From the NCBI GenBank assembly GCA_001771275.1, contig METE01000001.1, forward strand, positions 55,158-119,157: a stretch of 64,000 bases of DNA, given 5' to 3'. The notes beneath the pieces are model-generated. The model did not search any database. It saw nothing but the letters and a program-made list of their open reading frames with translations, and had not been told where the DNA came from. The first letter of the stretch is position 1. Each line of letters opens with the position of its first letter. Both the position numbers and the translations under genes were made by a program. This document shows positions 53,162 to 60,117 of this stretch, piece by piece. This stretch comes from a candidate division Kazan bacterium RIFCSPLOWO2_01_FULL_48_13 (GTDB lineage Bacteria; Patescibacteriota; Kazan-3B-28; UBA10110).

Positions 53162-53487
53162 AGAGTCAAGTGATCGGATTATTAGTACAACTCGGCTGAA
53201 TCCCTTACGGGACTTACACCTGTTGCCTATCAACCAAGTAGTCTACTTGGATCCTTATCCCGCCAATTTAAGGTTCGTATGGCATACCGTCAGCCAAAAT
53301 AGCAATGAGCTAAATTAGATGGAGTAAATCACACACCAGCCCTAAATTGGCGGGAGGGAAATTTATCTTGAGGTTGGCTTCACACTTAGATGCTTTCAGC
53401 GTTTATCCAATCCGAACATAGCTACCCAGCACTGCCCTTGGTAGAACAACTGGTATACCAGCGGTCCGTTCGCTTCGGTCCTCTCGT

Positions 53488-54292
53488 CACTTATTCCCCT
53501 ATCACTAGGAGCGTAGACTATATCTTCACCCATTCTGCTTTTGCAACAGAATTAGGGTGGCGGCGTATTACCTATATGTATCTGTCTGCTAAAATCAGCG
53601 GACTTTCCAATGACATATAAGTCCGTTCTGGTGTTTTTGAACAACAGAACAAGTCGTTACGGGGTCAAACCTAAAACTTTGTATAACTCCACTTTAGTCT
53701 TCTTTTTCTTAGTGACATAATTTTCACCCTGAATCACCAAGATCAGATCGATTAAAGTTTTTAGAGTCTTACTCTCCAGCATATTTTTGGCATTGTCAGA
53801 CAAGATTTCGGCTGCCGTATGTAACGCAACAGCTTGAATCTTTTTAAATCGGATAAATGGCAACAGACTCCCGAGAATATCTCGAACCTGTTGATACCCA
53901 TTGATACGAAGCTCGGTCATGCCATCGTTCCTCGTGGAATGATAGCCTATGCCCAAAACTTCGCGAATCCAATGCAGAGCCTTTGCATGGCGTGTGTCCT
54001 GATAGAAACAGATGGTGGTCATAAAACGAATTTTTGATCTTCCATCTTTACGCTTCTTGATTTGAAGCATCAGACTTCCATCTCCATCAAGGAAACCCGC
54101 TATGTACGCTAGATCCGTTTTAGATCGACTTCCCACGGTATTGTCTTATTTCGTTCTGGTCCTCAAGTGAATTGTACCATAATCGCAAGAACCGTTAGCA
54201 ATTATGGCTATCAACGGATACAGAGCTGATAAGATTCCACCGTTATTAGCCGCATTGTCATCGTAGATTACTCTACGAAGTAGCAATTCTTT
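53488..54292 (-). mobile_element. Group I intron 1 in 23S, inserted between ...GCTTCTAGT and ACGAGAGGACCG (immediately 5' of the sarcin-ricin loop core); encodes LAGLIDADG endonuclease
   Basis: The 5' exon ends in U and the intron ends in G (…AATAAGTG|ACGAGAGG). The intron contains the R/S-like core elements (rc of CAAGTCGTTACGGGG and AGACTATATCTTC) and ORF 53657..54136. Confidence 0.65.
53657..54136 (-). CDS. LAGLIDADG homing endonuclease (intron 1)
   Basis: [18 protein letters not shown] (LAGLIDADG motif); 159 aa. Confidence 0.8.
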   Translation of the reverse strand: MGSRSKTDLAYIAGFLDGDGSLMLQIKKRKDGRSKIRFMTTICFYQDTRHAKALHWIREVLGIGYHSTRNDGMTELRINGYQQVRDILGSLLPFIRFKKIQAVALHTAAEILSDNAKNMLESKTLKTLIDLILVIQGENYVTKKKKTKVELYKVLGLTP

Positions 54293-54355
54293 ACTAGAAG
54301 CGACTCCCCTCAAATTTCCTACGTCAACAGCAGATAGAGACCGAACTGTCTCACG

Positions 54356-55099
54356 CATGATCTTCCACTATTACTAATGGCATAGACTATATCTTCTTCC
54401 TTTTAGCCCACCGGCTAAGGAGGAGTTGGCGTGTGATAATCGACATAACAACTATCGACTATCTCATCGATCCACTGGCCTTCAGCGAATCGAATCAGTC
54501 GTTACGGGGAAAGAGATTATGTTCTTGCAGAAATTGTTTAACCGTTGCTCGCGTGGTCGTGCGTTTCTTGGAGTAATTGTACGCTGCGGTTTCATCCACC
54601 AGAGCCGCTCTTTTGAGCAACTCGGTGGGAGAGATTCTTTTGGGTGAAGACTTAATTCCCATTACACATAGGTTGATAACTTTTTGCGCAATGGTCTTTT
54701 TTAGCCGCAGATATGGTAACAATTTGGTTAAAACTTCGTAGACCGACTGATACCCCACAATGGTGTATTCAGCCATATGATCATTACGAACACGAACATA
54801 TCCATACTTCAGTTGGCCCTTGAGCCATTCGAGAAAATATTTTTTGCTTTCTTTTTGATAGAAAACAACACTCACTCGAATCTGATAGCCATGAACATAT
54901 CCACTCCGTTTAACCAGTTGCGCCATAATGCAACCGTCTCCGTCTAAGAATCCCGCAATGTAGGCAAATAACTTTTCTGCCATAACCTCGATCTTCCCTC
55001 GGGGTTGCCCTCTCTTCGTTCGGTATAAAAGAGTAGGGGTTCTCCGATATAAGCCAAATTTATTGTATCGCATTTCTGCGATAGAACGCAATGTAACTT
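54356..55099 (-). mobile_element. Group I intron 2 in 23S at the GGGTTCAGAACGT|CGTGAGACAG site (E. coli about 2593); encodes LAGLIDADG endonuclease
   Basis: Exon junction read directly; the intron ends in G. S-like element (rc of AGACTATATCTTC at 54385) and R-like element (rc of CAGTCGTTACGGGG). Confidence 0.7.
54495..55091 (-). CDS. LAGLIDADG homing endonuclease (intron 2)
   Basis: [18 protein letters not shown]. The ORF-track start at 55091 is a TTG codon; ATG alternatives are MRYNKF (55073) or MAEKLF (54983). Confidence 0.75.
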
Positions 55100-56928: not shown

Positions 56929-56946
56929 ACCCGACAAGGAATTTCG

Positions 56947-57682
56947 CTCGGAGTCTTACTTAATTCACATTAAGTTGCCAACATATTGAGCTGTTGGCAC
57001 TGCATATCGCTATGCAGATGGGACTATATCTTCTCGACCTTTTGTGATCGAGCTTGGCGTGTAGTCTCTGAGGATTCTGATCAGTTTTATCCGAGATTTT
57101 TTATGGTTCATCAGTTGTGTAAGTCTTGCCATCTTTACCATACCCTCAACATTGAGGTGTTCTTTTTTAGACATAGACCTTACACACTGAGCAAACAACG
57201 CAAAGTCATTTCGCTTTGATGTTTGCAATGCACTTTTCTCGAAGAAGGGTATTATCACTTTTAACAAGTCTGCTCTTTTCCCAACTTTATAGCTGAATAA
57301 ATCTTCTTTATGGTTGTCATGCCTACGATTTCTATAAATCTGGCCGACACCGAAGAAAGATTTGATTCTTTCGAGCGCGGCTAAACCGCGCTCACCTTGC
57401 GTCACTGCAAAGTGATGGGAAATTTGGTAACCTGTTTTATACCCCCGGCGGATTCTGGTTTTTTCTTGACGATCAGGTTGTCTCGCAAAATTAATTGAGA
57501 AACATCCTTCTCCGTCAACAAAACCTATAATCCAACCGATCAGCCTTTCCTGCTGATTGTCTGCAGGAGATACATTGTCACTGATTTTCATTCAGACAAG
57601 GAATAGTGTTCACTTGTCTTAATTGTATCTCAGTAGTACTCCATACACCAGAGTTTCCAGCATATAGCCAAGTTTTACTAAG
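56947..57682 (-). mobile_element. Group I intron 5 in 23S at CCTAAGGTAG|CGAAATTCC (E. coli about 1917); encodes LAGLIDADG endonuclease
   Basis: Exon junction read directly; the intron ends in G; contains the rc of GGGACTATATCTTC. Confidence 0.7.
57010..57591 (-). CDS. LAGLIDADG homing endonuclease (intron 5)
   Basis: LIGWIIGFVDGEGCFSINF; 193 aa. Confidence 0.75.
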   Translation of the reverse strand: MKISDNVSPADNQQERLIGWIIGFVDGEGCFSINFARQPDRQEKTRIRRGYKTGYQISHHFAVTQGERGLAALERIKSFFGVGQIYRNRRHDNHKEDLFSYKVGKRADLLKVIIPFFEKSALQTSKRNDFALFAQCVRSMSKKEHLNVEGMVKMARLTQLMNHKKSRIKLIRILRDYTPSSITKGREDIVPSA

Positions 57683-60117
57683 GCAGCTTTCCTACCTTAG
57701 GACCGTTATAGTTACGGCCGCCATTCACCAGGGCTTAATTTCAAAGCTTTTCCATCTCCAGTTCCAAAGAACTGGGGATGGATAACCTATCCACGTGACC
57801 TTCTGGCATTGGGCAAGCGTCAGTCCCTATACATCCTCTTTCGAGTTAGCAGAGACCTGTGTTTTTGCTAAACAGTCGCCTGAAGTCTTTTGCTGTGGCC
57901 CCGCCATTTTAAAGTTCGTGCGTGGTTATCACCAACCAAACTAACTCAACTGTTAATTGATCGGTAAGCTATCACACTAACCCTAAAATGGCGGGGCAGT
58001 CCTTATCCCTAAGTTACGGACGCTATTTTGCCGAGTTCCTTAACGAGGGTTCTCTCGATCGCCTTGGTCTACTCGACCCACCCACCTGTGTCGGTTTGCG
58101 GTACGAGTGCTGATTGTTCTCGCAGAGAGGGTTTTCCGGTCAGTTTGGCTCAGTTAAATCGCCTGCCGGCAAGCCGGCAAACTTTCCATCACTGATCATG
58201 GTTACCCCTAAAATTAGGGAGATCTCCCGGATTTGCCAAAGAGATCCCACTAGCAGCTTAGACGGGCAAACCTCTACCCGCTCAACCTACCATCCTGCGT
58301 CACCCCATAGCTAGGCGCGGTGCATCTGCAACCAAGTGTCCATCCCGGTAAACCGGAACAACCTCCTTGGCGTAGAACGCAACGAACCTGTGGCGAACAA
58401 ACAGCAGTACAGGAATATTAACCTGTTATCCATCGCCTACGCCTTGCGGCCTCGGCTTAGGTCTGACTAACCCTGAGATGATTAACATAGCCCAGGAAAC
58501 CTTGGGTTTACGGCGCGCAGGTTTTTCACCTGCGTTAATACGTTACTCGTGCCAACATTCTCACTTCTGCCCGCTCCACCACACCTCACGGTGCAACTTC
58601 ACAGCCGAGCAGAACGCTCTCCTACCACCACGCTAAAAGCGTGATTCGCAACTTCGGTGTTAGGCTTGAGCCCCGGTAAATTTTGGGCGCGAACACACAT
58701 CGACCAGTGAGCTGTTACGCTATCTTTAAAGGATGGCTGCTTCTAAGCCAACCTCCTGGTTGTCTATGTGCCCTCACTTCCTTTAACACTTAGCCTAAAC
58801 TGAGGGACCTTAGTTGGCGATCTGGGCTTTTCCCCTCTCGACAATGGCGCTTAGCCGTCACTGTCTGACTCCCATGCTATTGACTCACAAGTATTCGGAG
58901 TTTAATTGGACGCGGTACGGTTTCCCGCCCGAATCCATTCAGTAGCTCTACCACTTGGAGGAACACATGAGGCTATACCTCAATATATTTCGGAGAGAAC
59001 CAGCTATCTCCGGGTTCGATTGGAATTTCTCCGCTAATCACAGTTCATCCCCTCACTTTTCAACGTAAGTGGGTGCGGCCCTCCACTGCTTTTTAGGGCA
59101 GCTTCAGCCTGACCATAATTAGATCACCCGGTTTCGGGTCTAATCCCAGCAACTTAAACGCGCTATTCACACTCGCTTTCGCTACGGCTCCGCCCTCTAA
59201 CAGGGCTTAACCTTGCTACTGAGATTAACTCGTTGGCTCATTCTACAAAAGGCACGCCGTCATCCGTCAGCTGACGGACTCCGACTCTTAGACGGGCTAT
59301 TGGTTTCAGGTACTATTTCACTCCCCTCATCGGGGGACTTTTCACCTTTCCCTCACGGTACTAGTTCACTATCGGTGAGAAGTAGTATTTAGCCTTACCA
59401 GATGGTCCTGGCAATTTCCGACAGAATTTCACGGGTTCCGTCGTACTTAAGTTTGGTTACTCGGAGTTATTTTCTTTTCGCGTACAGGACTATCACCTTC
59501 TCTGGTGGCCCTTTCCATGGACCTTCTGCTAAGAAAATAATTTTTTACTCCTGACTTGCTCTACAGATCAAGATGTAACGACTTATAACCCTCTCGTTGC
59601 AAGGCCTGTAGGCTTTAACACAACAAGAGTTTAGGCCATTCCCTTTTCGCTCGCCGCTACTAAGGGAATAAACATTTGTTCTCTTTTCCTCACGGTACTA
59701 AGATGTTTCAGTTCCCGCGGTTCCCTCTCGCAAATCTATGTATTCAATCTGCAAGTATCCGCCCTGTTTCTACGCACAACTTCTACGCCTTTGCTCGTCA
59801 CGACTTCGTCACAAGAGCTTAGGCGCAAAAATAATTTTGCGCAGAAATAGGGCGGATGGATTGCTCCATTCGGACATCCCCGGCTCAAAGGTTGCTTGAC
59901 ACCTCCCCGAGGCTTATCGCAGTCTGCTACGTCCTTCATCGGCTACTTCTCCCAAGGCATTCACCAATAGCCCTTGAGTAACTTGACTCTGTTCTCAAGA
60001 GCTTAGTCTTAATCGGCGATCACAAGAAACGACATTTCTTATGATTTTGTTATTTTTGTGGCTTTACTGCAAATTGTTAAGTTGCACGCAAGTTCAAATA
60101 TAAAAATCTTTTTCCCC

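Follow-up and report, generated by a model that had tools for sequence, protein, structure and literature searches.

An earlier account of insertions in the 23S ribosomal RNA (rRNA) genes of the candidate phyla radiation (CPR) is reportedly that of Brown et al. 2015. The gene considered here is a CPR 23S rRNA gene on the minus strand of a 64,000-nucleotide (nt) stretch of DNA (the window; positions 55,158 to 119,157 of contig METE01000001.1, GenBank assembly GCA_001771275.1) from the candidate division Kazan bacterium RIFCSPLOWO2_01_FULL_48_13, and it was read with high confidence as a Kazan 23S gene into which five mobile group I introns have inserted, at positions 1931, 1951, 2500, 2593 and 2656 (Escherichia coli numbering). 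The 348 CPR 23S genes catalogued by Tsurumaki et al. (2024, J Bacteriol; PMC11270868) carried insertions of at least 100 bp in 82% of cases, with up to 16 per gene and a total length of 1,327 bp on average (standard deviation 1,112 bp, maximum 5,750 bp). In that catalogue 45% of the insertions matched group I introns, whose sites were concentrated towards the gene's 3′ part, and open reading frames (ORFs) of the LAGLIDADG_1 type had hot spots at 1917, 1931, 1952, 2593, 2604 and 2657. The CPR enzyme I-ShaI, from hot spot 23IS7 (23IS6–8 being 1917, 1931 and 1952), has been shown to cut its target in vitro, and I-KazI is named alongside it as the Kazanbacteria counterpart (PMC11270868). The gene in the window resembles the catalogued ones in lineage, in the gene affected, in group I introns that mostly contain single-domain LAGLIDADG_1 ORFs, and in the use of hot spots 1931, 1952, 2593 and 2657, the catalogue's positions having been derived from comparison with E. 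coli and lying 1 nt off the splice-site numbering used here. Position 2500 is not mentioned in its main text and the terminal nucleotide of the introns was not its subject; otherwise there is no difference of substance.

Outside the CPR, introns at L1931, L1951 and L2593 occur in Thermotoga, Simkania, Coxiella and cyanobacteria (PMC1995217). The cyanobacterial and Thermotoga introns (Haugen et al. 2007, PMC1995217) are located at L1917, L1931 and L2593, the latter two sites being common to the present gene; they are of similar size (approximately 650–750 nt), and their single-motif LAGLIDADG ORFs of 143–189 amino acids reach into the ribozyme core. P7.1/P7.2 extensions belong to the L2593 introns in that study, and extra hairpins at the same place were seen here in the L2500 family alignment; the genes described there have at most three introns, and L2500 and L2656 are not reported among them. 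In Coxiella, two group I introns, one of them at L1951, reportedly lie on either side of a very short exon, and one intron of the gene reportedly lacks a terminal G; this is similar to the arrangement reported here, in which the short exon measures 20 nt, but differs in the number of introns (two against five) and in the site of the non-G end (L1917 against L2500). The Coxiella L1951 intron also has a LAGLIDADG ORF of 157 amino acids (PMC1995217), whereas the L1951 intron in the window is ORF-less. A further multi-intron large-subunit rRNA gene is the chloroplast rrl of Floydiella terrestris, with eight group I introns, including those at 1931, 2449, 2500 and 2596; it is organellar rather than bacterial and most of its introns lack endonuclease ORFs, but group I introns at L2500 are well established in such genes (PMC2997540).

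A first-pass annotation of the window, made from the sequence alone, had proposed a 23S gene with five group I introns, and its remark that such multi-intron genes with LAGLIDADG ORFs are known from CPR bacteria agrees with the catalogue (PMC11270868). Given that catalogue and the other known sites, the finding correctly describes a kind of gene that was already known. The same annotation had called the intron density high, which holds when ordinary bacteria are the standard but not when CPR relatives are, judging by the PMC11270868 survey and by the 80 genome loci compared here. One close relative has five introns and four LAGLIDADG ORFs, another contains five or more large insertions, a GIY-YIG ORF among them, and several of the 80 genome loci bear more inserted sequence than this gene (4,789, 4,346, 3,996 and 3,947 nt), with up to eight insertions.

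The gene occupies 53162..59990 (minus strand; all coordinates are those of the window), the extent that had been proposed. Helix 1 is formed by 5′ AGAGUCAAGU and 3′ ACUUGACUCU (first ten bases against the last ten), and a flanking processing stem beyond it pairs 60010-59991 with 53161-53142 over a further 20 bp; because both pair exactly at 53162/59990, the gene ends were taken as exact. The Rfam model LSU_rRNA_bacteria matched with 2003 bits, but its reported extent (56029..59988, claimed to cover the full model 1-2925) was rejected in favour of BLAST blocks and hand-read junctions, as forcing the model alignment through the introns made the match end 2.9 kb before the gene really does on its 3′ side. 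BLAST blocks between E. coli 23S (reference copy L001) and the window were collinear, with five breaks at which the window has 302–886 additional bases with no counterpart in E. coli. The exons, which are intact, align collinearly with E. coli at 71% identity, and all functional motifs are present.

Junctions were read by hand on the minus strand and the junction strings were then located. The E. coli reference copy is offset by +2 and +1 against standard numbering, and positions were calibrated on landmarks, namely the helix 69 pseudouridines 1911, 1915 and 1917, D2449, Cm2498, m2A2503, A2602 and the GAGA tetraloop 2659-2662. Exon 1 (57694..59990, approximately 2,297 nt, E. coli 1-1931) ends in CCUAAGGU, and intron 1 (56949..57693, 745 nt) follows after U1931 (CCUAAGGU↓A), not at approximately L1917 as first annotated. 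Exon 2 (56929..56948, AGCGAAAUUCCUUGUCGGGU) comprises only the 20 nt of positions 1932-1951 between the first two introns, so that the ORF-less intron 2 (56627..56928, 302 nt), previously placed at approximately L1931, lies after U1951 (UGUCGGGU↓G); its length and its lack of an ORF were upheld. Exon 3 (56079..56626, 548 nt, E. coli 1952-2500) is followed by intron 3 (55193..56078, 886 nt) after U2500 (GGCACCU↓U), and exon 4 (55100..55192, 93 nt, E. coli 2501-2593) by intron 4 (54356..55099, 744 nt) after U2593 (CAGAACGU↓A), both sites having been assigned correctly before. Exon 5 (54293..54355, 63 nt, E. coli 2594-2656) and exon 6 (53162..53487, 326 nt, E. coli 2657 to the 3′ end) enclose intron 5 (53488..54292, 805 nt), which is inserted after U2656 (CUAGU↓A...G↓ACGAGAGG); it had been assigned to a position just 5′ of the sarcin-ricin loop, and it sits inside that loop, between U2656 and A2657, splitting the bulged-G motif. 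All exons and introns are on the minus strand. The introns total 3,482 nt and the exons approximately 3,347 nt, in line with the earlier estimate that some 3.5 kb of intron exceed the exon sequence, and all five sites map to the ribosome's functional core, in the segment 3′ of helix 69, in the peptidyl-transferase ring or in the sarcin-ricin loop.

The mature 23S rRNA, introns aside, is approximately 440 nt longer than that of E. coli. By comparison with E. coli 23S, four expansions of approximately 80 nt are located near E. coli positions 154, 275, 1415 and 2789-2809 (approximately 59829-59750, 59626-59548, 58395-58312 and 53355-53257, minus strand), three in exon 1 and one in exon 6; they could be expansion segments or intervening sequences of the RNase III type.

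Intron borders were compared with intron-less alleles. The predicted ligated 28-mers of all five junctions were found uninterrupted in relatives, four without mismatch and that of L1951 with one mismatch away from the junction, which fixes the intron borders; the same relatives reveal a presence/absence polymorphism, as expected of mobile introns. The ligated L1931 junction was uninterrupted in 11 relatives, and that of L2656 at 17 loci in an exact-pattern scan of metagenome contigs. Locus L103 (JGI Ga0265297_10114871), which shares 97.5% identity with the spliced sequence, has no intron at the L2500, L2593 or L2656 junction. Locus L105 (Ga0315282_10023803), 97.5% identical over exon 3, has introns at L1951, where the intron carries an ORF, and at L2604, and none at L1931, L2500, L2593 or L2656. 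With exon identities of approximately 97.5% and different intron sets, these two loci indicate that intron content turns over among very close relatives. Spliced transcripts were sought in the metagenome scan with the ligated junctions; only intron-less genomic alleles were recovered, and nothing identifiable as a transcript.

The assignment of the inserts to group I was based on covariance models, core elements, covariation in two families and the uninterrupted alleles at all five junctions, and on these grounds the earlier count of five group I introns was retained. The covariance-model check that had been suggested was run with Intron_gpI (RF00028): an E-value search of the 8-kb region gave exactly five matches (E 1e-6 to 3.5e-3), and a search of the whole window on both strands (128 kb searched) gave the same five, all in the 23S gene and on its strand. 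The L1931 intron (30.9 bits, E 4e-5) has P1 UAAGGU/GCCUUA with the U.G pair at the splice site, and an element search placed its R element at 57070-57062 and its S element at 57031-57021. For the L1951 intron (36.9 bits, E 6e-7; P1 GUCGGGU/GCCCGAC) Q, R and S elements were found, as they were for the L2656 intron (25.1 bits, E 2e-3; P1 UAGU/GCUA), and R and S elements for the L2593 intron (34.0 bits, E 4e-6; P1 AGAACGU/GCGUUCU). These four introns end in G. The L2500 intron (28.2 bits; P1 GCACCU/GGGUGC) has a P10 helix CAUUG/CGAUG and ends in A at 55193. By inspection, the 5′ exon ends in all five cases with a U opposite a G of the guide sequence a few bases into the intron, and a J6/7-P7 (R) element, GUA[A/G]NGACU or CAGAGACUA, is followed in the right order by a J8/7-P7 (S) element, AGAUAUAGUC, in each of them.

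Family alignments were made for the L2500 and L2656 introns, to which the covariation results apply. From 57 L2500 introns aligned with the ORF removed, P1, P2, P3, P4, P5, P6, P8 and P9 were recovered, together with two P7.1/P7.2-like hairpins after P7; P1, P2, P3, P5, P8 and P9 covaried, many pairs were changed on both sides, and the splice-site U.G was present in 57/57. P7 was read by eye, as it crosses P3 as a pseudoknot. The L2656 family, collected by conserved guide-sequence context, comprised ten introns, all with the splice-site U.G and with covariation in P2, P3, P5, P8 and P9, P4 and P6 likewise being recovered; an initial regular-expression search for this family was discarded on account of false positives from short motifs. 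The L2656 intron occurs at loci L063 and L039 in a 354-nt ORF-less form and a 536-nt form, against ORF-bearing forms of approximately 770–860 nt; the short forms fit a gain-and-decay cycle of homing endonuclease genes.

The four LAGLIDADG ORFs that had been annotated were subjected to the suggested LAGLIDADG_1/2 profile search, and all scored above the Pfam cut-offs (23.1 bits for LAGLIDADG_1, 25 bits for LAGLIDADG_2). The translations contain GFVDGEG, GFLDGDG and GFLDGDG in the three LAGLIDADG_1 ORFs, and LLGDG and FMDDG in the L2500 ORF; all four are on the minus strand. The L1931 ORF (57010..57591, 193 amino acids, GenBank OGB85732.1) has the single motif GFVDGEGCF and a LAGLIDADG_1 score of 72.7 bits (PF00961). 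In comparison with solved structures, its product matched single halves of I-OnuI/I-SmaMI (E 1e-29 to 1e-27). This endonuclease and the arginyl-tRNA synthetase (ArgRS) encoded in the window match proteins of candidate division Kazan bacterium RIFCSPLOWO2_01_FULL_48_13 exactly, which confirms the CPR lineage that had been suggested; the ThrRS sequence gave no exact match. The two-motif L2500 ORF (55347..55940; 197 amino acids from ATG, 200 from TTG at 55949, a form that gave no hit in an exact-sequence look-up, the deposited gene call using another start) scored 125.2 bits for LAGLIDADG_2 (PF03161; motifs LLGDGTL and WFMDDGSK), and its product matched I-SceI (E 1e-13). Relatives of this I-SceI-like protein (40-63% identity) also turned up in bins carrying the labels Omnitrophota, Gammaproteobacteria, Chloroflexi, Flavobacteriaceae, Woesearchaeota and Hadarchaeales (loci L015, L019, L023, L025, L027, L034, L044, L065, L080, L089 and L090), which suggests wide horizontal spread of the intron or mis-binned rRNA contigs.

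The L2593 ORF (54495..54983, LAGLIDADG_1, 41.2 bits) encodes 162 amino acids from ATG, the longest ORF beginning at TTG 55091, and its product matched the homodimeric LAGLIDADG enzymes I-CvuI (E 6e-27), I-CreI (E 1e-21) and I-MsoI over the whole length; these enzymes presumably come from introns at the same L2593 ribosomal DNA (rDNA) site. The L2656 ORF (53657..54136, 159 amino acids, GTG start, LAGLIDADG_1, 35.2 bits) showed distant I-CreI/I-MsoI similarity (E 1e-13 to 1e-9). Its product has 3,181 homologues in more than 100 clusters at approximately 70% identity or above, and every named source is Patescibacteria. ORFs start in the P4′/P6 strand in the L2500 and L2656 introns, and for the L2500, L2593 and L2656 introns the J6/7 element CCCGUAACGACU contains the stop codon, from which it follows that the ORF fills the P6 loop. 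The L1931 ORF overlaps the ribozyme core at its 3′ end, through P7, P3′, P8 and P7′ into P9; an overlap of ORF and core has been described for cyanobacterial introns (PMC1995217).

The end of the L2500 intron departs from the canonical pattern. It reads ...CAUCAUCAUA↓CGAUG, with the A at 55193 in place of the terminal G. The 3′ splice site was set after this A because of the P10 pairing and the exact intron-less allele in the 97.5% identical relative; shifted junctions restoring a terminal G were rejected, since each shift alters the invariant C2499, U2500, C2501 or G2502. Among 78 L2500 introns gathered via the I-SceI-like ORF (loci L012-L091), 28 end in A and 50 in G, a proportion that is not an unbiased estimate because the sample was chosen by similarity to the ORF in the window. 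A rough neighbour-joining tree requires at least eight changes of the terminal base, and whole clades keep A. An adapted G-binding pocket in the A-terminal introns was considered and rejected, the G-C guanosine-binding pair of P7 being unchanged in both groups. At the same loci, all introns at L1951 (11), L2593 (7), L2604 (3) and L2656 (13) end in G. A few introns at L1917 and L1931 in these loci lack a terminal G, although the junctions at those sites are ambiguous because the 3′ exon begins with A. We tentatively propose, at slightly less than even confidence, that in the L2500 family the normally near-universal terminal guanosine has been exchanged for adenosine repeatedly and stably while the P7 pair stayed constant.

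It is also conceivable, though rather unlikely, that an A-ended L2500 intron cannot complete the second splicing step unaided, and would need a protein cofactor (e.g. maturase activity of the ORF product) or 3′ hydrolysis, or would splice poorly. The final A, at a junction fixed by the exact intron-less allele, speaks for this explanation, as does the unchanged G-binding pair, which implies a pocket not adapted to A. It is opposed by the frequency of A among the relatives, the repeated changes and the A-keeping clades, from which the state appears to be tolerated over long periods in a single essential gene, and by a Coxiella intron without terminal G, which is called self-splicing in the title of reference 29 in PMC11270868.

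Several points weigh against the reading of the locus as a gene with five mobile group I introns. The five Rfam matches, at 25–37 bits, are all below the 50-bit gathering score, and of the introns with ORFs only some portions are covered by the model alignments; the scores were lowered by the large ORF insertions and a misplaced P1. A convincing P10 was sought for the L1951, L2593 and L2656 introns and none was found, P1 of the L2656 intron has only 4–5 bp, and the L2500 intron is without the canonical terminal G. Moreover, one bacterial 23S group I intron, the L1931 intron of Simkania, is unspliced according to the title of a paper cited in PMC11270868.

The sub-threshold scores and the Simkania case also speak for the explanation that at least one insert is not spliced and is either kept in the rRNA or excised without ligation, in the manner of RNase III-processed intervening sequences, giving a fragmented 23S. 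CPR 23S genes are further known to contain non-intron insertions and probable intervening sequences (PMC11270868). However, the inserts break universally conserved single-stranded or functional segments (1931, 1951, 2500, 2593 and 2656) rather than helix tips, all five retain the U.G pair at the splice site together with the R and S core, and the L2500 and L2656 family alignments point to selection acting on helices of the ribozyme. An RNase III-processed intervening sequence is a hairpin extending the tip of a variable helix (helix 25 or 45, for instance), has no ribozyme core and is removed with no ligation of exons; it was rejected for the five inserts, which interrupt invariant sequence and carry group I cores. 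Retention or unligated excision of any insert is thus considered very improbable.

An assembly chimera or a dead rRNA pseudogene can be dismissed almost entirely: the source is a metagenome-assembled genome and rRNA regions are hard to assemble, but over 5.9 kb an independent ENA assembly agrees at 99.98% identity, with a single mismatch 20 bases from its contig end, so that the locus did not arise by misassembly, two Kazan genomes list the same endonuclease protein, the intact exons with their motifs speak for a functional gene, and relatives show the same 23S architecture.

For the locus as a gene with five mobile group I introns, we infer splicing, endonuclease activity and homing from sequence features. 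The gene would be transcribed as one precursor of approximately 6.8 kb, in which each intron would fold into a P1-P9 ribozyme. An external guanosine would attack after the U of the P1 U.G pair, and ligation of the exons would yield a mature 23S rRNA of approximately 3.35 kb. The LAGLIDADG enzymes would cut intron-less alleles at the same rDNA site, and repair would copy the intron in (homing); a patchy presence of each intron among close relatives would result from this process.

A 5S rRNA gene (52372..52484, minus strand, Rfam 79.7 bits) is located approximately 680 nt downstream of the 23S gene. The spacer between them (52485-53161) contains an ORF of 101 amino acids (52573-52878, minus strand) on the same strand as both genes, with a high content of hydrophobic residues and no match in Pfam. 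The 4 kb upstream of the 23S gene contain no 16S gene, and the rRNA genes therefore appear unlinked; unlinked rRNA genes have been reported for many CPR genomes (PMC8172020). A class A RNase P RNA (1729-2498, minus strand, 159 bits) measures 770 nt against the 367-nt model and contains an insert of approximately 300 nt (approximately 2044-2339) at the tip of P12, forming a long, internally branched extended stem (fold z-score −6.6). Neither a group I match nor any Rfam family was found inside this insert. Extended helices in CPR RNase P RNAs have been mentioned (PMC8172020).

For annotation, the consequence is that automatic procedures would truncate this 23S gene, as rRNA models mis-annotate such genes, and the exact junctions permit extraction of the correct mature 23S. 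The genome has been public since 2016 and the literature already describes multi-intron 23S genes with LAGLIDADG ORFs as a hallmark of the CPR, so that the finding as first stated adds nothing new. The locus shows selfish introns piling up at catalytic sites of a single-copy essential gene. The recurrence of a terminal A in L2500 introns is less ordinary than the rest, and it is the only aspect for which an experiment might be worthwhile. If the proposed exchange is true and splicing is normal, A at the omega position would be tolerated far more widely than the single known Coxiella precedent suggests; alternatively, the second step in the A-terminal L2500 introns may depend on hydrolysis or on a protein, the I-SceI-like product of the ORF.

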